From Candidatus Thalassarchaeaceae archaeon (GTDB lineage: Archaea; Thermoplasmatota; Poseidoniia; Poseidoniales; Thalassarchaeaceae): a stretch of 43,119 nt of DNA. The stretch's first letter is position 1, and each line of letters begins with the position of its first letter. The notes beneath the pieces are model-generated. The model saw nothing but the letters and a program-made list of their open reading frames with translations. It made no database searches and was not told where the DNA came from. The stretch is from NCBI GenBank assembly GCA_963694325.1, contig CAVOCV010000001.1:1-43119 (forward strand), in the 5' to 3' direction. Both the position numbers and the translations under genes were made by a program. This document shows positions 8,454 to 42,991 of the stretch, in pieces.

Positions 8454-8530
8454 GGACCCGTGGGTTAGCTTGGCTATGCTCGGAGCTTTGGGAGCTTCAG
8501 ACCTCAGTTCAAATCTGAGCGGGTCCACCA
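8454..8530 (+). tRNA. tRNA-Pro (anticodon UGG), CCA encoded
   Basis: Hand-folded. The acceptor GGACCCG pairs with CGGGTCC. The anticodon stem GGAGC/GCTTC carries loop TTTGGGA (UGG). The T arm is CTCAG-TTCAAAT-CTGAG, with discriminator A plus CCA. The D stem is weak (3 bp with G-U pairs), but A14, GG and A21 are in place. Confidence 0.85.
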
Positions 8531-13568: not shown

Positions 13569-13570
13569 AG

Positions 13571-13644
13571 CGGGCGTTAGGGGGTTCGAACCCCTGACCT
13601 ACGGGTTAAGAGCCCGTCGCTCTACCTAGCTAAGCTAAACGCCC
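13571..13644 (-). tRNA. tRNA-Lys (anticodon CUU), no encoded CCA
   Basis: The reverse complement folds as GGGCGTT-TA-GCTT-AGCTAGGTA-GAGC-G-ACGGG-CTCTTAA-CCCGT-AGGTC-AGGGG-TTCGAAC-CCCCT-AACGCCC-G. All four stems pair. Confidence 0.9.
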
Positions 13645-14404: not shown

Positions 14405-14514
14405 CGGGCCGTCCTCAGCCGATGAAGGGCATATCCTTTCGCACCGTTCCGGGCACTTTACCGGCCCGTAGGGCCGCCACAGGTTTCAATATCCTCCAAT
14501 CGTGTCCGGAGGTC

Positions 14515-17500
14515 ATGGGAGTCGAGCGGACGCCATGGTTCACCTCAATCCTCCTAGTCGGATTGCTGCTCGGCATGAGCGCGGGGATGATGGTTCAACC
14601 CCCCCAAGACGACCTCGATGATGCGGTTCAACCGAGACGCTCCGGCATCAATGAACCGACGCCGATGGCCATCACCAATGCGGATGGCACCTCTTCAGCA
14701 CTGAAGGCAGAGGTGCCGATGGGACATACCGTCGAGGAGATCAACGTCTCGCTCTCACCCGACCCACTGGCCTTCAACGATGCCTTTACCTGGTCCGACC
14801 TCGGCGATTGGAATGCCTCTGGTGCAGTTCTTGACCGTGTCAATGTGAATCGCACCGATGGCCTCCAACTCCTACCCCGTTTGTGGGAATGGGATTTCGA
14901 GAACGCCAACCATGGCTGGAGCCTCGGCACCGGCTGGTTGTGGGGCTATGATTCCTGCCTCGGTGCGTCCGGTGGAGTCCACGGTGGCGCCAAGGCGATC
15001 TACACCTACAATTGCAATTATCCAAACGGGGTGCCCTCATCGGGCTACTTCGCGACCTCGCCCGTGATCGATTGCGGCGGTTGCAGTGGCACGTGGGATT
15101 TGAAATATTGGAAGCGCCTCGGGATCGAGTCTTACTATTACGATGATGCACAGGTCCACGTCAAGGATTCCCAAGGCAGTTGGCAGACGGTCTGGGACTG
15201 GAGTTCCTACTCCACCAATCCGACCACGTGGACCCAGATGAACCACGATATCTCCACCCACGTGAATGGAAATTCAAACCTGCAGATTCGATTCAAACTC
15301 GGCCGTACCGACGGTTCGGTCACCTACACTGGCTGGAATGTCGATGACGTCTCTCTCGAACCACAGAACGGTGCCGGCGGCGGCGAGCAAGCGAACTGGA
15401 CCTCCGCCCGATTCGGCCCGGGTGTCACCGGCGCATACGGCACTGAAGGGGTGCGCTATGGCATCACCTCGATCGATGCAACGATTCCATCGGGTTCAGG
15501 CCTGACGATGTCGGTTCTCGACGGTGTGTCGAAGACGGCGATTCCTGGATTCCTCAATGTCGAGCCGACCTGGGTCGACCTCGGCAGCATTGACCCTGAG
15601 AAGCATCCGAGCCTGCGCATCAAGTTCAATTTCGATGCGACCGGCGGTGCGACCTCGCCGATCGTCCATGAAATTCACATGAACAATCGCTACGGGTCGA
15701 CCTTCAATGCCGACCCGACCACCGCGGGTTGGACCTTGGCTGGGATGAACTGGAATGGGAACGCGATTTCCGGATCGGGTACACTCACCTCCCCCGTCTT
15801 CACCTCGCACCGCGCCCTCACTCAACTCTCTAGTTCAGTCGGTGGATCTGGCACGTGGGTCACCGATGTGAGCCTCGACGGTGGGCCGTGGTTCAGTGCC
15901 TCCAACACCGGCGTGACCTCATTCTCAGCGTGGGGCAACAGCCTTCAGATCCGCATGTCCTGTGCCGGTTCCTGCACCTTCAACGATGCACAATTCGATT
16001 TGATTGGCGGGCACCTACCTACACATCCGCGCTTCGACATCGGCCTCGATGGCTGGGCCGAGTGGCAGATGGTTCACCCACACATTTCTGAGTGGGGCTG
16101 GCAGAGTCGGTTCACGAATGGTCAACTGTCCGCGGACATGACCTGGTCCGCTCCCGGATTGAAGCAGGTTGGCATGATGTTGGCCAAGACCGGCCTCGAT
16201 TCCTTCGCCGTTGAACTCGCACCGTTCGCAGCGACCGACCCAGTCGATGTCTCGATATCGGTCGATGGTCAGGTGCTGTTCACCAAGACCGTCGCCTTCG
16301 AAACCGATGCCGAGACCTATGCGCTCAGTGCCCAAGAGATGATTGAACTCAATGAGAATCTCTCCAATGCCCTGACCTTCTGGGCGGCCCCCGGCAACAT
16401 CCAGTACGCCATCGCGACGGTCGATGTCCAGGGTTCGTATGGCTCGATTCGCGTCGGCGGATTGTCCGCGCTGTACCGGCCGACAGCCAATCTATCCTTC
16501 CCCGTCGATTCAACCTTCGTGATGTCGATGAATCAGGCCCTGCCCGATGCCCAGATCGAATCGCAGGCCCGCCTCGTGCCTCTGACTCTCAAATCATCCA
16601 GTGCCGGTGGGGCACTCGGCGTTATCACCAATTTGATATCGGCCGAAAACGTGCTGCTCGATGGGGCCGCCTTGGCGAATTTCTCGTCGTGGGAACCCGT
16701 TACCCCGTCGTGGCAGTGGATGGAGATGGAGTTGAATTATTCATGGGATGTAGGCGTACCTTCCTATCTCTCCATGATGGTCGAGACCAACATGCTCGCA
16801 GCATATTACGAATTGCCAGTCGACGGCAGCGCCCCCGTCTTGATCTTGCTCGAGGGGACGAATGTCTCCGACCCTATTCGATTCGGTAGCATCGTCTTCG
16901 ATTCGCATGAAGATGGTCTCAACGCCAGCGTTCAATTCCAGACTGAAGCCAGCCTCGATGATTCGGCGAAATTCAAGGTCAGCGCTTCTCTCTATATGAC
17001 GGATGGTTCGCCCTCGCCGCCATACACAGAACGATCTGGACAGATGAGCCAAGGTGTGGAAAACGACGTCGAGGTCATCGCCTGGGATGTCTACAATGAA
17101 CTCGGTTTGGCGATTCCACCTGCAATGTCCTATCTCAGATCCAATTCACCCATCTCGATTCAGACACACATCGGATTCGAGAACTTGCTCGGCACACCCT
17201 CGAAGAATCCGAGAACCGGCGATGTGCGCGTCCACCTGCTCGAGAATGGCGTCGCGAAGATGAACACGACCAACATCTTGGAAGGCCACGTCGTCTTTGG
17301 CTTCACCACACCCGTGGGCACGGGCAACGTGACCTATTCATTGGACATCGAGCCGCTCGCAGGACAAACCTTCGTTGCCGGCATCCCTCTGAATCGGACG
17401 TTCACCGTCGATTCCCTGAACCCTCAGGTCGTCGATCAGAACATCGATCGCTTCGACCACCGCACACCCTCTCCGAACCAACTCATCCAAATCGAGGTGC

Positions 17501-19842
17501 ACGACCGCCCGGTCCTGCCCACCGATCTCACCCTGATGGTATGGCGTGAGTGGGCTGACGATATCGACGGCGATGGCGAAATCGATGAGGATGAATTCAC
17601 CGGCATGCTGCTGCAGCAACCCGGAAATCTCAGCCAAGCCCGTGGTAATTACACCCTCCTGCTCGATGATACCGCTGCAACCGAAGGCGATCTGGTCGCC
17701 GCATATGTGGTCGGTGCGGACCCCGCGGGCAATGTCATCATTGACTCGGGCACGAATACACTGGGTGACCAATTGTTCACCTATCAGGTGATGCCGGACG
17801 GACCTCCCTCTCTACCTGGGCAAGGTGGATTCGCCAGTTCACCGGATGGAAAGTTGGCCTACCTCCACCCCGGGGTGGATTATGAATTTGGACTCCACAT
17901 CATCGAACCCAACGGTTGGGCTGACATCGGCGATCTGCGCTTGCAGTTGGCCAGTAATTCTGTCTCAGACACCCTCGCAGTCGAGTGGTCCGCCTCGGAT
18001 GGACGCTGCGTCGTGCTCTCGCCTCACATGGAGGTTGAGCGCTGTGGTGTCCGGGCTTGGACAGGCGAATTGACGCCGTTCAACCCCGACCTCGAGTTCT
18101 TCGTCGAGTTCAGTCTCAACTGGACCCTGCCCCGCGGCGGGGACATCCGATGGGAGCCATCGATCGAAGTCACGGATCGCGGCGGACAAGGCGCGTGGCT
18201 CTCGTTACCGCAACTGCGCTGGCGATACTCGCCCGACCTCGCGATCGACACCGATGATATGACCCTCAGCCTGGCGTCGGGCACCTATTCCGAAGAGGGG
18301 GCATGGGTTGCCCCCGGCTCTTCGATCTCACTGAATGGAGCGCTACACTTCCCGGTCTCAGGCGTGCGACCGAGCGAGACATTCGATGTGCGCATCCTCC
18401 TCGATGGTCAGGAGACGATGGTCGTCAGTGAAGATGGCGCGTGGTCAGCCTCCTTCGATGCACCCGATTTCTCCGGTTCATTCCCGCTCACCGTGGAGAT
18501 TGCTGATTTGCCCAGCGGTGCCAATGACGTGACGGACACGACAGCTGCTCTGCGCTGGATTGTTGTCGACCCGGTCGGTCCTGAGGTCGTCGAGGCCGTC
18601 TCGCCTCGGCCCGGCTCCATTCTGCCAAAGGAATCACTCGGCGCACTGCAGATTCAAGTTCGTATCTCTGAACTCGAACAGATCGACGAAGAGAGTTTGG
18701 TCTTGCACTGGAAGATCATCCGAGGCAGCGACGTCCGCGCTATCCCACTGCTTCACGGCGAGTCCGCGCTGACCATCGAAGGTGGCAACCTCGCCGGTCA
18801 ATCGATTATCGCTGGCACAATCCTCGACCTCGCCAGCCAGATTCCCGAGGAATACTACAGCGATGACCTGCGATTCCACATCTGGGTCGAGGGCAACGAC
18901 ATGGCGGGCAACCCCATGGAGATGCCATCCGGCACCAATCAGGATGACAATCCATTCGCGTCTTGGGCGCTCGAGCGCCGAGCACCCGTGTTCACCTTGA
19001 GTGAAGACGATGTTCGCTACTCCCGCTCTGGAGATGTCGAGGCGGGCACGAATGTGATGATCACCGTCTCGGTGCGCAATGATGGAGAGGTCGACGGCGT
19101 CGTCCGCATGCGCCTGACCGAAGTTCACCTCGACGGCACAGAGCGCGAATTGACCGCCGTCGCCGTCCAAGAGACGATCCCCGCAGGCGGCCTCAAAGAA
19201 ATCCACGTCGACTGGGTCCCCGATACCGCAGGCCGCCAATGGATCCGCATCACCATCGAGGATGGCCCCACCGTCAACGGACCCACATTGCACGCGGTTG
19301 CAGGCGAGGATGACAGCCTCATCGGTTCGATCTTCGGCGGCGTTGACCTGACGTGGAGTGTCCTCTTCATCGGCCTGATCATCCTGCTCGCCAGCGTGCT
19401 CCTCATCGCCCTGCGCAGCGGCGGTACCCGCTCCTATTCCATCGAAGATACCGAGGATGACGGATACTGGGACGACGACGGTGAGGGTGAGGGTGATGAC
19501 GGATATCTTGAGGCCGGTGAAGAAGCACAACCGGAAGGATTCCCCTTGGATTATCGGGATGAGACTGTGCGCCACGTCATGACTCAGAATGGTATCTCCG
19601 ACACCATCGGCTTCCTACAGCACGCCCGCGGCTTCGACCGAGATGGCAACGGCTACCTCAACGAGGCTGAACTCAACATGGCCGCATCCTCCTTTGTGGC
19701 GGCGGGCAGCCTGGTCGAAGCACAGGTAGGCACCCCCGCACTCGACCCCTCAACCATGACCGGCGATCAGTTGGCGTGGTACGAGGAAGCGAAGAAGTGG
19801 GGCGGCTACTATGACGAGTCCGGCACTTGGATTCCCCTCTGA
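14515..19842 (+). CDS. Giant (about 1775 aa) membrane-anchored surface protein: signal/anchor, MAM-like jelly-roll, long beta-rich region, CARDB-like domain, TM helix, acidic cytoplasmic tail with EF-hand
   Basis: I take the ATG at 14515 (MGVERTPWFTSILLVGLLLGMSAG). The MAM-like segment WEWDFENANHGW...GWNVDDVSLEP is at about 14884..15363. The CARDB-like segment VMITVSVRNDGEVDG...WIRITIEDG is at about 18988..19266. The TM helix WSVLFIGLIILLASVLLIAL is at about 19351..19413. The EF-hand loop DRDGNGYLNEAE is at 19636..19671. Many N-x-S/T sequons. Confidence 0.85.
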   Translation: MGVERTPWFTSILLVGLLLGMSAGMMVQPPQDDLDDAVQPRRSGINEPTPMAITNADGTSSALKAEVPMGHTVEEINVSLSPDPLAFNDAFTWSDLGDWNASGAVLDRVNVNRTDGLQLLPRLWEWDFENANHGWSLGTGWLWGYDSCLGASGGVHGGAKAIYTYNCNYPNGVPSSGYFATSPVIDCGGCSGTWDLKYWKRLGIESYYYDDAQVHVKDSQGSWQTVWDWSSYSTNPTTWTQMNHDISTHVNGNSNLQIRFKLGRTDGSVTYTGWNVDDVSLEPQNGAGGGEQANWTSARFGPGVTGAYGTEGVRYGITSIDATIPSGSGLTMSVLDGVSKTAIPGFLNVEPTWVDLGSIDPEKHPSLRIKFNFDATGGATSPIVHEIHMNNRYGSTFNADPTTAGWTLAGMNWNGNAISGSGTLTSPVFTSHRALTQLSSSVGGSGTWVTDVSLDGGPWFSASNTGVTSFSAWGNSLQIRMSCAGSCTFNDAQFDLIGGHLPTHPRFDIGLDGWAEWQMVHPHISEWGWQSRFTNGQLSADMTWSAPGLKQVGMMLAKTGLDSFAVELAPFAATDPVDVSISVDGQVLFTKTVAFETDAETYALSAQEMIELNENLSNALTFWAAPGNIQYAIATVDVQGSYGSIRVGGLSALYRPTANLSFPVDSTFVMSMNQALPDAQIESQARLVPLTLKSSSAGGALGVITNLISAENVLLDGAALANFSSWEPVTPSWQWMEMELNYSWDVGVPSYLSMMVETNMLAAYYELPVDGSAPVLILLEGTNVSDPIRFGSIVFDSHEDGLNASVQFQTEASLDDSAKFKVSASLYMTDGSPSPPYTERSGQMSQGVENDVEVIAWDVYNELGLAIPPAMSYLRSNSPISIQTHIGFENLLGTPSKNPRTGDVRVHLLENGVAKMNTTNILEGHVVFGFTTPVGTGNVTYSLDIEPLAGQTFVAGIPLNRTFTVDSLNPQVVDQNIDRFDHRTPSPNQLIQIEVHDRPVLPTDLTLMVWREWADDIDGDGEIDEDEFTGMLLQQPGNLSQARGNYTLLLDDTAATEGDLVAAYVVGADPAGNVIIDSGTNTLGDQLFTYQVMPDGPPSLPGQGGFASSPDGKLAYLHPGVDYEFGLHIIEPNGWADIGDLRLQLASNSVSDTLAVEWSASDGRCVVLSPHMEVERCGVRAWTGELTPFNPDLEFFVEFSLNWTLPRGGDIRWEPSIEVTDRGGQGAWLSLPQLRWRYSPDLAIDTDDMTLSLASGTYSEEGAWVAPGSSISLNGALHFPVSGVRPSETFDVRILLDGQETMVVSEDGAWSASFDAPDFSGSFPLTVEIADLPSGANDVTDTTAALRWIVVDPVGPEVVEAVSPRPGSILPKESLGALQIQVRISELEQIDEESLVLHWKIIRGSDVRAIPLLHGESALTIEGGNLAGQSIIAGTILDLASQIPEEYYSDDLRFHIWVEGNDMAGNPMEMPSGTNQDDNPFASWALERRAPVFTLSEDDVRYSRSGDVEAGTNVMITVSVRNDGEVDGVVRMRLTEVHLDGTERELTAVAVQETIPAGGLKEIHVDWVPDTAGRQWIRITIEDGPTVNGPTLHAVAGEDDSLIGSIFGGVDLTWSVLFIGLIILLASVLLIALRSGGTRSYSIEDTEDDGYWDDDGEGEGDDGYLEAGEEAQPEGFPLDYRDETVRHVMTQNGISDTIGFLQHARGFDRDGNGYLNEAELNMAASSFVAAGSLVEAQVGTPALDPSTMTGDQLAWYEEAKKWGGYYDESGTWIPL

Positions 19843-19885: not shown

Positions 19886-20184
19886 TGGGATCAGGAGGAC
19901 CACTGACAGTGTACGACACTGAGGAAAGTCCCCTCTGCACAGGTGCAGGTGGTCCGTCGCAAGACGGGTGTCCGGGAGGGCAGGCGCTGTAGAAGAAACG
20001 AATCGGCCCGGGAGCACGATGAATCCGCAAGGAGGAGATTCCCCGACGTCGACTGAGACGAACATCCCCACCGCAGCAAGTCCAAACAGTTCTGTTGACG
20101 GCATCGAGAGGAACGGGTAGGACGCATAGTTGAATGTGGTTAACCGGCAACGGCGAACAGAAAGGGGCTTACTCCCTGATCCCA
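19886..20184 (+). ncRNA. rnpB: RNase P RNA (archaeal type A-like)
   Basis: The universal CR-I motif GAGGAAAGTCC is at 19921..19931. The CR-V-like ACAGAAAGGGGCTTAC is at 20156..20171, with AAGTCC/GGGCTT forming P4. P1 pairs TGGGATCAGG (19886..19895) with CCTGATCCCA (20175..20184). There is a P3-like hairpin CAGTG-TACGA-CACTG and GNRA-capped hairpins (CCGTC-GCAA-GACGG, TCC-GCAA-GGA). It lies in the 392-nt gap between convergent genes. Confidence 0.85.
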
Positions 20185-30179: not shown

Positions 30180-31055
30180 TCAATCAGATGAGCCGCGCCG
30201 AAGAATCACCGTGGAGAGCACAAGCGCGCTAAACAAGAATAATATCGCCCCAAGCGACAAGAAATCGACAGGGTCGGCCCCATCCTCATATTGGAGTCCG
30301 ACGACGCTTCGGATCTCGCCATCGACGGTGAGCACGGCGACCACACCCCAAATCTTGTCAGTCCCGTGCACGACGTATCCAGCCTCGGACTCTTCGCGGT
30401 CCAATGCTTCCCAAGTGACCTCATATCCAGCATCTCCCACGTACTCGAATGCAGATGCATTGATGCGAATCTGTCCCGTCAACACATCCTCGTGCTCATC
30501 GATACCATTGCTCGCGATCTCCGAATCCATCGACCGCTGTTGTTTCAGATGGAGGGTGATGCTGGCATTCTCTGTCCAAGGCCCCGCATCGACACGGATC
30601 ACATCCCCGGTTGAATGGGTATTCCACTCGAGGCGCATCTCCTGCCAAGCGTCACGATCCAATTCTGCGGACATCACAGCGCCTGCGAGCCGATTGTAGG
30701 TGACGGCGCCGGTGACCTGGCCCTGACCATCGAACCAGAATGTCGGCAGTCCGAGGTTCTCATCCGGACTGAGTTCGGAAATCCTTGCGGTGGTGAGTGG
30801 GGTGCCGAATGGATCGTGATCGTCGGGGTGCAAGGCGATGCGCTCGACCCGGCCACTGTGGTCGGAGACGAAATCACCGATCCAAGGATCGATGGTTGCG
30901 CAGACCTCACACCATGTCGCCGTGTACTGTTCGATGAGAATTGCGTGTCCACCGGTGCGCTCGCGCTCGACCGACTGGAACTGCTCGGTGCGGGCACTCG
31001 CGAGCACGGGCAGAAGGAGGAGGGCGATGAGGGCGAGCGCCAGTGCCCTTCGCAT
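30180..31055 (-). CDS. Secreted thioredoxin-fold protein (WCEVC motif) with C-terminal TM anchor and basic tail
   Basis: I take the ATG at 31055 (MRRALALALIALLLLPVLASA signal peptide); an alternative ATG is at 31082. ILIEQYTATWCEVCATIDP is a Trx-like CxxC context. The C-terminus is DPVDFLSLGAILFLFSALVLSTVILRRGSSD. Confidence 0.6.
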   Translation of the reverse strand: MRRALALALIALLLLPVLASARTEQFQSVERERTGGHAILIEQYTATWCEVCATIDPWIGDFVSDHSGRVERIALHPDDHDPFGTPLTTARISELSPDENLGLPTFWFDGQGQVTGAVTYNRLAGAVMSAELDRDAWQEMRLEWNTHSTGDVIRVDAGPWTENASITLHLKQQRSMDSEIASNGIDEHEDVLTGQIRINASAFEYVGDAGYEVTWEALDREESEAGYVVHGTDKIWGVVAVLTVDGEIRSVVGLQYEDGADPVDFLSLGAILFLFSALVLSTVILRRGSSD

Positions 31056-31123
31056 GGGCTGAACGCCTCGGCCGGGTCTCATTTACATATCCCGGGCCCG
31101 GCCGACCGATTGGGGGGCGTCAG

Positions 31124-39627: not shown

Positions 39628-41055
39628 ATGTCCAGCACCAACGCGCTCTCCACCGTCCGTTTTTCGGATTGGGACCTCTCTGACGACATTGCTGATGCGA
39701 TCGCCGCCAAGGGCTGGGATTACACCACGCCCATCCAGGCCGAGTCGGTGCCTCTGGCCCGGTCCGGCAAGGACATCGTCGGCCAGGCCCGGACCGGATC
39801 CGGCAAGACCGTGGCATTTGGCATCCCGATCATCGAGAATAGCGAACCGACGGGCACGACCCAGGCGCTCGTTCTCTGCCCGACCCGAGAACTCGCGACC
39901 CAGGTCAGCGAGGAACTGCAGTGGTTGCAGGGCGGCAAGGGACTGAAGTTCGTCACCGTCTACGGCGGCACGGACATCGACAAGCAGGCCAAGGTCCTCG
40001 ATGCGGGCTGCGATGTGATCGTCGGCACGCCCGGACGCGTCATCGACATGACCAAGCGCGGCCACATCGATCTGTCAACCATCACCCGATTTGCCCTCGA
40101 CGAAGCCGACAGAATGCTCGACATGGGCTTCTTCCCGGACATCCTATGGTGTCTGGAACGCCTCGAAAACCGACAGCAGACCCTGCTGTTCAGCGCCACT
40201 TTCCCCCAAGAGGTCCTCGAGGCGGCGAACGAATTCATCACCGGCGCCGAGCACGTCATGAGCGAGGAACTCGATGTCGAGGTGCCCGAGATCGACCAGT
40301 ACATGGTCAAGATCGGCCGCGCCAACAAACTCTGGGTCCTCGGCCGACTCATGGTCCGCCTGAGCGAGGAGGATCAAGTCATCGTCTTCACCAATACCAA
40401 GCGCATGGTCGACCTTCTGGTCGAACGGCTAGAGCGTCACCGCTTCAGCGCCACCGGCCTGCACGGTGACATGGCACAGAACAAGCGCGAGCGCATCATC
40501 AAGGATTTCCGCGAGGGCTTGACCCGCGTTGTCATCGCCACCGATGTCGCAGCGCGTGGCCTCGACGTCGATGGCGTCACCATGGTCATCAATTACGACA
40601 TCCCGAACGATTCAGAATCCTATGTCCACCGCATCGGCCGCACCGGCCGAATGGGCCGCAAAGGCGAGGCGTGGTCCTTCGTCTCCGGCGAGGACGCGCC
40701 GCTCATGAGCAAGGTCATCTCGACCTGGAACATGGTCGTCAAGGAGGTCGAAGCACCGCCACTCCCCGACGGCGTCGACCGAGACCCCGTCCGCAAGCAG
40801 AAGGATTGGGGTGAATCTGCCGATGTCTGGGGCATGGTCCCCATCCGCTTGGCCATCGATGGTGCTTCCAAGCTCGCCATCCACGCCTTCCTCTCCGACG
40901 AAGCGCGTCTTCCCGACCTCGCGATCGGCAACATCCGCCCCGAGGGGAACACCACCATCGTAGAAGTCCACAGGCAGAAGGCCCAGCACGCCCTCGACGC
41001 TCTCAAGGGCAAGTCCTTCAACGGCGCCAAGGTCAACGCTGACCTCGTCAACTGA
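39628..41055 (+). CDS. DEAD-box ATP-dependent RNA helicase with C-terminal DbpA/RRM-like extension
   Basis: Motifs AQTGSGKT-type (ARTGSGKT), PTRELA, TPGR, DEAD (LDEADRML), SAT and HRIGRTGR. A C-terminal beta-alpha-beta domain of about 80 aa follows. Confidence 0.9.
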   Translation: MSSTNALSTVRFSDWDLSDDIADAIAAKGWDYTTPIQAESVPLARSGKDIVGQARTGSGKTVAFGIPIIENSEPTGTTQALVLCPTRELATQVSEELQWLQGGKGLKFVTVYGGTDIDKQAKVLDAGCDVIVGTPGRVIDMTKRGHIDLSTITRFALDEADRMLDMGFFPDILWCLERLENRQQTLLFSATFPQEVLEAANEFITGAEHVMSEELDVEVPEIDQYMVKIGRANKLWVLGRLMVRLSEEDQVIVFTNTKRMVDLLVERLERHRFSATGLHGDMAQNKRERIIKDFREGLTRVVIATDVAARGLDVDGVTMVINYDIPNDSESYVHRIGRTGRMGRKGEAWSFVSGEDAPLMSKVISTWNMVVKEVEAPPLPDGVDRDPVRKQKDWGESADVWGMVPIRLAIDGASKLAIHAFLSDEARLPDLAIGNIRPEGNTTIVEVHRQKAQHALDALKGKSFNGAKVNADLVN

Positions 41056-41058
41056 GGC

Positions 41059-42099
41059 TCATTCCTCTTCTGAGGAAGGGGAAGGGGTCGGTTCGATCGT
41101 CACGATGGCGAGCCCGATGAACACCGCACTGAAGATCCAGGCGCGATAGGATCGGCCCCAGGCCTCGTTCCAGCGCTCCATCTCGGAGTAGCACCCCTCA
41201 CCATCGGCATTCTCCCAACCGTTAACAGGCCCCCACGCACACTCGCCTGCTGTCGCCTTATAGCCGAGATTTTCCTCATCGACGGTCACTGCATAGGTCG
41301 CCCAACTGGCGAGGAGCAGACAGAGGACGATGACCACCTTCGACACGTTGGGGAGTGAATCTCGCAATCGAATTTCGTTCAATCGGGGCAGATCCTTGAT
41401 GGAGGGCCTGACCGTCTTGTCGACCAATCCTTTGCGATCGAGTACGATATACCAGCCGAGCCACATGAGGACGAGAATGGCAAGGAATCCCTGACTGAGG
41501 ATGAATTGATGGAATTCGAGCATCGGTGCCTCGCATCCCAAGGTGTTCGGCGAAGCTTCGCATCCACTCACCGCCAGTGGGTAGAGGACGACGAGCCGAA
41601 TGAAATTCAGCACCTGAACGATGAGAATCATCGCTGCAATCGAGCGCCAGCGGGTTCGATTTTTGATGCCCGGTGTCAGCAGCATGAGGACGCTGAGAAA
41701 GATGATTTCGTGCAATCCAACGCACTCATCTGACACGAAAACAGGCACATAGCCACCGACAAATGAGGTGTTGATCAGATGCACTTGGGTCAAGGCGCCC
41801 GTATCATGTCGAACCAGAACCGCCGACCCATCCCAAATAAAATTCGACAAACTGGTCCACAACGAGGCGATGCCAGCCTGATAGGGCTCGAACGAGTTCG
41901 AGGTATCCGTTCCCCACCAGTAAATCGCCTCGACGATGAGTAGGACGAGCGGAATCCGCAGGTATCCATAGGCCAATTCACCGACCTCGGGCCACGACAA
42001 ATCCTCCTTCGGAGGTGGCGTGGTTCGCTTCGCGCGCACGAGGTGCCGACACTCCCTCGGCGCTTCAAAGCAACCCTCCTGCCCAGCAGTCGGATTCAA
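41059..42099 (-). CDS. Exosortase/archaeosortase-family-like polytopic membrane protein with C-terminal extension
   Basis: Candidate Cys126 in VFVSDECVGLHEIIFL (codon 41722..41724), Arg168 in LNFIRLV (41596..41598) and His197 in EFHQFI (41509..41511). The spacing fits the Cys...Arg...His arrangement of this family. The track start is TTG; a GTG at 42039 is an alternative. The call is from pattern memory only. Confidence 0.5.
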   Translation of the reverse strand: MNPTAGQEGCFEAPRECRHLVRAKRTTPPPKEDLSWPEVGELAYGYLRIPLVLLIVEAIYWWGTDTSNSFEPYQAGIASLWTSLSNFIWDGSAVLVRHDTGALTQVHLINTSFVGGYVPVFVSDECVGLHEIIFLSVLMLLTPGIKNRTRWRSIAAMILIVQVLNFIRLVVLYPLAVSGCEASPNTLGCEAPMLEFHQFILSQGFLAILVLMWLGWYIVLDRKGLVDKTVRPSIKDLPRLNEIRLRDSLPNVSKVVIVLCLLLASWATYAVTVDEENLGYKATAGECAWGPVNGWENADGEGCYSEMERWNEAWGRSYRAWIFSAVFIGLAIVTIEPTPSPSSEEE

Positions 42100-42125
42100 G
42101 AAAGGTGAGCGCCAGCAAGCAACCG

Positions 42126-42371
42126 ATGAGCACCGACCGTGCCGACGTCACCCTCGACGTCCTCGGCTTCCACTGCCCCGTGCCGGTCCACGAGACCAAG
42201 CGCACGCTGGCGACGATGGACACGGGAAATGTCCTGCTGGTGATGGCCGACGACCCGGAGACCAAGATGGACATGCCCGCCCTGCTCAATCGCACCGGTG
42301 ATACACTCATCGAATTGCACGAGGAAGCCGGAGAATTCCATTACCGCATCCGCAAGGAGGCAATCGCATGA
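42126..42371 (+). CDS. TusA-like sulfurtransferase/sulfur carrier
   Basis: I take the ATG at 42126 (MSTDRADVTLDVLGFHCPVPVHETKRTL...). The CPxP motif has the family's characteristic context. About 81 aa. Confidence 0.7.
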   Translation: MSTDRADVTLDVLGFHCPVPVHETKRTLATMDTGNVLLVMADDPETKMDMPALLNRTGDTLIELHEEAGEFHYRIRKEAIA

Positions 42372-42991
42372 GCCCAATCATCGAGAAGACCGACGTCCCC
42401 GCCGATGCGCGGCTGCCGACCGAACACGGTGAATTCCGAATCCGAGTCTTCCACGACGAGACGACCGGATTCGATCACGTCGCCCTCACCCTCGGTGACA
42501 TGGTCGGCCCCGACCCGGTCCTCGTCCGCATGCATTCCGAGTGCCTCACCGGTGACGGATTTGGTTCACTAAGGTGTGATTGTGGGGCGCAGTTGGATGC
42601 AGCACTGCAATCCATTCAGGAACACGGTTGGGGCTGCCTCCTCTACCTGCGCCAAGAGGGTCGGGGCATCGGCCTTCACGCCAAGATTCAGGCCTACAAC
42701 CTCCAGGACAAGGGCGCGGACACCCTCGATGCCAACCTGATGCTCGGCCATCCTGCCGATGCGCGGGATTACGGCATCGCGGCCGACATGCTTCGCGCCG
42801 TCGGCATCCATGACGTCTGCCTCTTGACGAACAACCCCGACAAGGTCGAACAACTTCGAAACCACGGCATCACCGTTTCCGAACAGATGCCGCTCGTCGT
42901 CGGTGTCGGCAAAGACAACCGCGACTATCTCGAAACCAAGGCCCATCGCATGGGCCATGACATCTCCGATGCGGAATTGCAACAAGAGTAA
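42368..42991 (+). CDS. ribA: GTP cyclohydrolase II
   Basis: VRMHSECLTGDGFGSLRCDCGAQLDAAL (Zn-binding Cys triad), plus YLRQEGRGIGL and LLTNNPDK. Its ATG overlaps the tusA-like stop (ATGA). Confidence 0.9.
   Translation: MSPIIEKTDVPADARLPTEHGEFRIRVFHDETTGFDHVALTLGDMVGPDPVLVRMHSECLTGDGFGSLRCDCGAQLDAALQSIQEHGWGCLLYLRQEGRGIGLHAKIQAYNLQDKGADTLDANLMLGHPADARDYGIAADMLRAVGIHDVCLLTNNPDKVEQLRNHGITVSEQMPLVVGVGKDNRDYLETKAHRMGHDISDAELQQE

Follow-up and report, generated by a model that had tools for sequence, protein, structure and literature searches.

A very divergent second archaeosortase is encoded on the minus strand near the end of a 43,119-nucleotide stretch of DNA from a Candidatus Thalassarchaeaceae archaeon (the window, meaning the whole stretch that was analysed). 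It is referred to here as ArtX, a name coined for this second archaeosortase-family paralogue. Profile matches and invariant catalytic positions identify ArtX as a genuine, very divergent member of the exosortase/archaeosortase family that belongs to an undescribed subfamily. As judged from its sequence relatives, ArtX is confined to the class Poseidoniia, which comprises Marine Groups II and III (MGII and MGIII), and there coexists with a canonical ArtA. It represents an uncharacterised branch within a known enzyme family rather than a new kind of system. ArtX likely works as a sortase-type enzyme on C-terminal anchors, an activity and a kind of substrate that we infer from the family.

Archaeosortases are membrane enzymes that trim and re-anchor cell-surface proteins; in Haloferax volcanii, ArtA is HVO_0915 and its substrates are PGF-CTERM proteins. 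Few archaea are as abundant in the surface ocean as those of MGII, of which to our knowledge none has been cultured, so that their cell-surface biogenesis is known only from genomes. A literature search found no paper linking archaeosortases with MGII or Poseidoniales. The presence of a conserved second archaeosortase carrying an accessory module would make surface anchoring in these organisms more elaborate than 'ArtA plus PGF-CTERM'.

Family membership, catalytic residues and predicted topology

The minus-strand open reading frame at 41059-42099 encodes 346 amino acids when counted from a TTG at 42099. P0002, an identical protein in the database, and the homologues found there begin with V/MRAKR, which corresponds to the GTG at 42039, and this GTG is therefore probably the true start, giving a protein of 326 amino acids. 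The initial annotation had read an archaeosortase-like protein from the longer frame, with Cys126, Arg168 and His197 as candidate catalytic residues; given the GTG start, these become Cys106, Arg148 and His177. All the motifs it listed (SDECVGLHEIIFL, LNFIRLVVL, EFHQFIL and CEASPNTLGC) are present in the reading frame. The features of the gene and its surroundings are as follows.

41059-42039, minus strand: ArtX coding sequence, 326 amino acids, stop codon at 41059-41061; corresponds to P0002; TIGR04178 match of 30.3 bits
42040-42099, minus strand: 20 further upstream codons of the longest reading frame, probably untranslated, as homologues begin M/VRAKR
41722-41724, minus strand: codon of Cys106, the putative nucleophile, in the motif SDEC-x-G-x-HE; invariant and aligned with the Cys of ArtA
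41710-41712, minus strand: codon of His110, a subfamily-specific invariant His at Cys +4 (C-x-G-x-H-E)
41596-41598, minus strand: codon of Arg148 in the motif LNxxRL; invariant and aligned with the Arg of ArtA LNxFR
41533-41562, minus strand: Cys160-x8-Cys169 loop (CEASPNTLGC), predicted on the outer face between helix 4 and His177; free of Lys and Arg
41509-41511, minus strand: codon of His177 in the motif EFHxF; invariant and aligned with the His of ArtA FEFGH
41062-41439, minus strand: C-terminal module, residues 201-326, kept in 26 of 26 members and seen only in the MGII clade
41191-41241, minus strand: Cys267 to Cys283, the ectodomain pair; invariant columns and a likely disulfide
41062-41070, minus strand: C-terminal EEE, a lineage-wide tri-glutamate end that is not specific to ArtX
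39628-41055, plus strand: DEAD-box RNA helicase, convergent neighbour, with synteny kept across the order
42126-42371, plus strand: TusA-like gene, divergent neighbour, with synteny kept across the order
42368-42991, plus strand: GTP cyclohydrolase II RibA, divergent neighbour, whose adjacency is also kept in MGIII

ArtX passes the NCBIfam exosortase/archaeosortase signature TIGR04178 with 30.3 bits against a curated cut-off of 23 (E = 3.9e-7; residues 121-216 of the 346-residue frame), and the same model matches 26 of 26 aligned ArtX homologues. Of the profiles proposed for checking the annotation, the NCBIfam signature thus recognises the protein, but the Pfam model Exosortase_EpsH (PF09721) does not, with 10.1 bits against a gathering score of 25.7. 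Cys106, Arg148 and His177 form invariant columns in an alignment of 26 sequences with 48% mean column identity, as do E105, G108, H110, E111 and N145. In profile-profile and multiple alignments, the three putative catalytic residues align with the Cys, the LNxFR Arg and the FEFGH His of the ArtA encoded in the same genome, the profile-profile match itself being weak (probability 12%, E = 0.0024, 45 columns). The assignment to the family stands, since TIGR04178 is passed and the triad aligns with that of ArtA, and the catalytic apparatus looks intact by these alignments. In H. volcanii ArtA, Cys173, Arg214 and Arg253 are the residues found critical by experiment (PMC9263693). His110 is invariant both in the 26-sequence alignment (A1) and in the distant relatives of a second alignment (A2), with Q or S at this position in ArtA.

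No described subfamily accommodates ArtX. The ArtA model TIGR04125 (cut-off 75 bits) gives no ArtX match at E <= 10, and the curated cut-offs for ArtB, ArtC, ArtE, pacearchaeosortase and XrtX/Y/V/M/G/W are missed by far by ArtX and its homologues, none of which match the ArtH and heimdallarchaeosortase models at all. The closest partial matches cover the catalytic core and come from pacearchaeosortase (NF033505, 24 bits against a cut-off of 80), exosortase X (NF046081, 18 bits against 170) and ArtB (TIGR04144, at most about 28 bits against 150). Weak, below-cut-off matches to XrtG (TIGR03110) were seen for 9 of the 26 homologues. Searches of the PDB returned no relatives of ArtX, either by sequence or by fold.

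The hydrophobic segments and the numbers of charged residues both agree with a predicted arrangement of six membrane helices with both ends inside. The N-terminus has 5 Lys and Arg residues and the two predicted inner loops have 4 and 9; the predicted outer loops, in which Cys106, the Cys160-x8-Cys169 loop and His177 lie, have 1 and 0. This charge distribution fits an N-in/C-in topology that would place the triad outside. AlphaFold2, run with the family alignment, gave a model with a mean pLDDT of 85.8 and a pTM of 0.74, extension included, and with pLDDT values of 84-94 over most of the C-terminal module. The module is predicted to consist, in order, of a basic cytoplasmic linker, helix 6, an ectodomain, helix 7 and a tail ending in EEE. 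Its ectodomain is acidic, comprises about 45 amino acids and contains the invariant Cys267 and Cys283; the tail after helix 7 is short and acidic, and EE, EEE or EEEE ends all ArtX homologues.

The C-terminal extension of about 120 amino acids with two hydrophobic helices and a Cys loop, described earlier from the single sequence, is conserved, and it appears to be an acquisition of the MGII clade, the one group in which it was seen: matches to distant relatives and to MGIII orthologues are limited to positions ~20-215, corresponding to the catalytic core. The CEASPNTLGC loop proved less general. Most MGII members, even the most distant ones at only 35% identity, carry a Cys-x8-Cys loop, but a short Cys-free loop takes its place in one subclade (P0010, P0011, P0014-16, P0018, P0020 and P0021) and in the MGIII orthologues.

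Distribution, locus and coexistence with ArtA

Two family members are encoded in the genome from which the window derives (G000), namely ArtX and a canonical ArtA on contig C6 (C6:16298-17299), the latter scoring 86.9 bits with TIGR04125 against the cut-off of 75. The ArtX profile does not pick up the ArtA of the same genome. ArtX is found as a single-copy gene at a fixed locus in 97 of 151 sampled Poseidoniales genomes. Broken down by family, it is present in 74 of 74 genomes of one family, in 2 of 2 of a second and in 20 of 74 of the window's own. Within this last family, ArtX was not found in seven genera with small genomes (1.3-1.6 Mb), and exactly one ArtA-like gene is present in each of five small ArtX-less genomes.

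The order of genes at the locus is constant across Poseidoniales, with a convergent DEAD-box helicase gene on one side of ArtX and divergent tusA and ribA genes on the other. The initial annotation had correctly noted that no substrate gene is adjacent: the neighbours encode the helicase, a TusA-like protein and RibA. Within a genus, ArtX is only about 51-54% identical, as against about 83-85% for the helicase and RibA. In the complete ArtX-less genome G027, all neighbours are present and the helicase stop codon lies 11 bases from the tusA start; the locus of this streamlined relative (C1:1113519-1116086, loci L078-L079) is thus a cleanly emptied site. The TusA-like protein of G027 has 148 amino acids and an extra N-terminal Cys-rich (CxxC) domain. 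In the window, a 93-amino-acid minus-strand frame at 42096-42377 lies antisense to the TusA-like gene and looks spurious, with a coding score of 0.08 per codon. The RNA genes of the window are an archaeal RNase P RNA at 19887-20183 (219 bits), a tRNA-Pro(TGG) at 8454-8530 and a tRNA-Lys(CTT) at 13570-13644. Relatives carry the labels Thalassarchaeaceae, Poseidoniales or Marine Group II/III.

Only 137 relatives were recovered when 1.84 billion representative proteins were searched with the profile, and full-length matches were confined to the MGII clade. MGIII genomes encode an ArtA-like protein as well as a short ArtX orthologue next to ribA, which has 268-280 amino acids with extra N-terminal helices and is without the C-terminal module. 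ArtX is, on this evidence, older than the split between MGII and MGIII.

Two more distant ArtX-like genes may be mentioned. In other Thermoplasmata, such a protein (P0108) is fused to a NosD/pectate-lyase-like beta-helix surface domain. At L173:939-4552, another ArtX-like gene lies beside that of an 853-amino-acid secreted protein whose tail reads ...EEPDVVG, helix, KKGRAR.

Proposed activity and candidate PGF-type substrates

The sortase-type activity that we consider likely can be outlined from the predicted topology and from the family. ArtX would span the membrane with six helices and have both ends in the cytoplasm, with Cys106, Arg148 and His177 clustering where helices 3, 4 and 5 reach the outer leaflet; the Cys-x8-Cys loop and the Cys-pair ectodomain of the MGII-only two-helix module are predicted to share that outer side. 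By analogy with the family, the signal for ArtX would be a C-terminal motif followed by a helix and a charged tail, borne by a single exported surface protein or by a small number of them. Cys106 would then cut at the motif via an acyl-enzyme, and the new C-terminus would be passed to a membrane nucleophile, which is a lipid in H. volcanii-type ArtA systems.

A more specific proposal, which we regard as rather unlikely in its entirety, is that ArtX is a dedicated second sortase of the planktonic archaea that are most abundant, in which a disulfide-stapled outer 'lid', made up of the Cys loop and the ectodomain, sets specificity, and that it processes the choice-of-anchor T protein, a possible main envelope protein, at an extended RGV(Y/F)xPGF(D/E) motif. 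If true, Poseidoniia would anchor surface proteins with two sortases, the second of which was given up in genome streamlining.

The choice-of-anchor T protein with this extended motif is our best substrate lead and comes from a conserved MGIII gene cluster, located as follows.

L167-L171 and L174-L207 (for example L167:914-3531), one strand, facing a convergent RibA gene: MGIII cluster with the ArtX-like gene

In 33 of 33 species-level MGIII loci, a choice-of-anchor T gene is followed by a NUDIX gene and then by the ArtX-like gene on the same strand, and the match coordinates concur in 34 sampled MGIII genomes. The encoded MGIII protein has about 300 amino acids and a tail consisting of W(V/I)RGVFxPGF(D/E), about 17 hydrophobic residues and a basic end. 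Its MGII counterpart carries IRGVYLPGFE, a helix and then a longer tail, and is encoded at a site not linked to ArtX; in G000 the gene is found at C189:989-1930, and its product scores 281.8 bits with NF041740 (cut-off 70). All 121 sampled genomes of the class have a member of this family. ArtX had been called an orphan, and indeed no substrate gene is adjacent in the window, but the genome also encodes a canonical ArtA, and in MGIII the orthologue shares its gene cluster with a PGF-type surface protein.

It should be noted that this neighbourhood evidence is weak, because the conserved gene order of compact genomes also joins unrelated genes such as that for RibA. Furthermore, six ArtX-less genomes from six genera keep the choice-of-anchor T protein with essentially the same RG(V/I)YLPGF(E/G) tail, so ArtX is not needed to maintain an RGVYxPGF-type signal. 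That this protein is the main target of ArtX is accordingly put forward as a tentative suggestion, and one more apt to be wrong than right. Next to the choice-of-anchor T gene lies a gene for a paralogue (G000 C189:2001-2783; also C151:3776-4173) that ends in a helix and a very acidic tail, ...DDLDDLDLDDFDL, with no PGF. An acidic tail in place of PGF in the neighbouring paralogue fits the name 'choice-of-anchor'.

Scans of C-terminal tails covered G000 (84% complete, with a rough gene call of our own), the ArtX-less G027 and 61% of the distant ArtX-bearing genome G003. Six PGF-type and three P-A-(V/L) tails were found in G000, nine PGF-type and three PA-type tails in G027, and both types also in the examined part of G003. 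An ArtX-specific tail class was found in none of these three gene sets, PGF and PA tails being present irrespective of ArtX. PA(V/L)-type tails were rejected as an ArtX-only class on account of the three in G027.

These tails bear on the possibility that ArtX is a partly redundant isoenzyme of ArtA, which handles a subset of ordinary PGF or PA tails, perhaps tails whose flanks are unusual, and lacks a signal peculiar to itself. Partial redundancy with ArtA would explain why ArtX could be lost in streamlined lineages with no change of tails. It is consistent with the similar numbers of PGF-type and PA-type tails in genomes with and without ArtX, with the PGF motif on the MGIII neighbour of the ArtX orthologue, with the unchanged choice-of-anchor T tail after ArtX loss and with a deletion that left the neighbouring genes intact. 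However, ArtX and ArtA are so divergent that the ArtX profile misses the ArtA of the same genome, both paralogues have been retained since before the MGII/MGIII split, and ArtX has its own invariant residues (His110, Glu105 and Glu111) and its own modules. Together, this divergence, long joint retention and set of private features suggest a distinct specificity for ArtX, and we hold redundancy to be possible but not probable.

Other sorting signals and comparison with known systems

A further alternative, and an improbable one in our view, is that ArtX reads a new, non-PGF signal, possibly a non-canonical one such as a helix followed by a long cytoplasmic tail on giant surface proteins. It is in keeping with such a signal that ArtX fits no named subfamily model and that archaeosortase subfamilies usually each have their own motif (PMC6098224); the MGII-only ectodomain could also set a new specificity. 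The initial annotation had likewise suggested an unrecognised sorting signal. This idea was not borne out by the tail scans of G000, G027 and 61% of G003, which gave only PGF and PA types, with or without ArtX, and neither tripeptide enrichment nor manual clustering of tails brought up a second motif.

The enrichment analysis took in the 40 C-terminal residues of every protein and brought out EEE and DEE alone. Exactly EEE ends 49 of the 1328 predicted proteins of G000, membrane and soluble proteins alike, and the next commonest C-terminal tripeptide occurs 5 times. EEE-COOH was rejected as an ArtX signal because it is equally present in the ArtX-less G027, where 34 proteins end in this way; the examined 61% of G003 has 33. 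A phyletic filter over three genomes (present in G000 and the partial G003, absent from G027) returned 95 genes, too many to be useful and confounded by streamlining. Co-occurrence has little power here, since the ArtX-less genera may represent few loss events.

Specific proteins fared no better as carriers of a new signal. The window protein at 30180-31082, singled out earlier for its DPVDF...RRGSSD end, was rejected as a substrate: homologues occur in 119 of 151 genomes, ArtX-less genera included (for example 8 of 8 and 3 of 3 genomes), and do not track ArtX, and the distant matches stop before the tail. Giant and long-tailed surface proteins had also been put forward as non-canonical substrates, but a helix followed by a long tail is common in the ArtX-less genome too. 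Long-tailed type I surface proteins are common in G000, G003 and G027 (23 in the ArtX-less genome versus 35), and no conserved motif was seen beside their membrane helix. These proteins, and Trp-rich cytoplasmic tails with them, were rejected as an ArtX signal, as both occur without ArtX.

Many large surface proteins of G000 have one membrane helix and then a cytoplasmic tail of 50-200 amino acids that ends in recurring Trp-rich motifs such as DEDGTEWWxDDxGxWWYR, GLPEGWTxEQWxxYG and YYDExGxWxPL. They are encoded on contigs C8, C10, C13, C24, C37, C49, C72, C93 and others and at 14422-19842 in the window, and G003 and G027 have similar tails as well.

A secreted protein of about 800 amino acids is encoded after RibA, directly or one gene on, in this species, G003, G027 and L206. 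It ends in a plain helix with a basic tail, for instance ...LQLGPGRIRRIE, and Pfam finds a CARDB domain in L214-L216. The gene at L214:5253-7718 corresponds to G000 contig C73:1-1335 and lies beyond the end of the window, from which a contig break separates it. As a substrate this CARDB protein was rejected, its tails not being conserved and the protein being present in G027.

Least probable of all, and indeed very doubtful, is that ArtX is not a protein-sorting transpeptidase but a membrane protease, a regulator or scaffold, or an enzyme with a non-protein or self substrate: its fast evolution (about 51-54% within-genus identity against about 84% for its neighbours), the lack of a cognate signal in the tail scans of G000, G027 and 61% of G003, and some exosortase-family proteins, XrtG among them, for which we know of no target signal, would be compatible with this, whereas the invariance of Cys, Arg and His in the 26 MGII homologues and in the distant relatives of alignment A2, the predicted outward-facing active site, as in sortases, and the tail-bearing surface protein in the MGIII gene cluster speak against it.

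For ArtX as a sortase-type enzyme acting on C-terminal anchors, two settings offer themselves for further work. The clean loss of ArtX in streamlined genera that keep ArtA is a natural comparison, and the MGIII cluster provides a concrete candidate enzyme-substrate pair.

Among known systems, ArtA (TIGR04125) resembles ArtX in being a polytopic membrane protein with the TIGR04178 signature, aligned Cys, Arg and His residues and a predicted outward active site. The settings are related as well: PGF-type tails occur in the organism that encodes ArtX, and the MGIII ArtX orthologue adjoins a PGF-tailed protein. In contrast to ArtA, ArtX does not match the ArtA model and is encoded by a gene separate from the ArtA gene of the same genome. 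The C-terminal two of its six predicted helices form the added module; further features of ArtX are an extra Cys-x8-Cys loop and a C-x-G-x-H-E motif peculiar to it. The minimal subfamilies, namely pacearchaeosortase (NF033505), exosortase X (NF046081) and ArtB (TIGR04144), share with ArtX a short catalytic core of similar size, but are without its C-terminal module of two helices and a Cys pair and its EEE end. XrtG (TIGR03110) is similar to ArtX as a family member for which no cognate C-terminal motif is known from the same genome; XrtG is bacterial whereas ArtX is archaeal, and the XrtG scores of the ArtX homologues stay below the cut-off.
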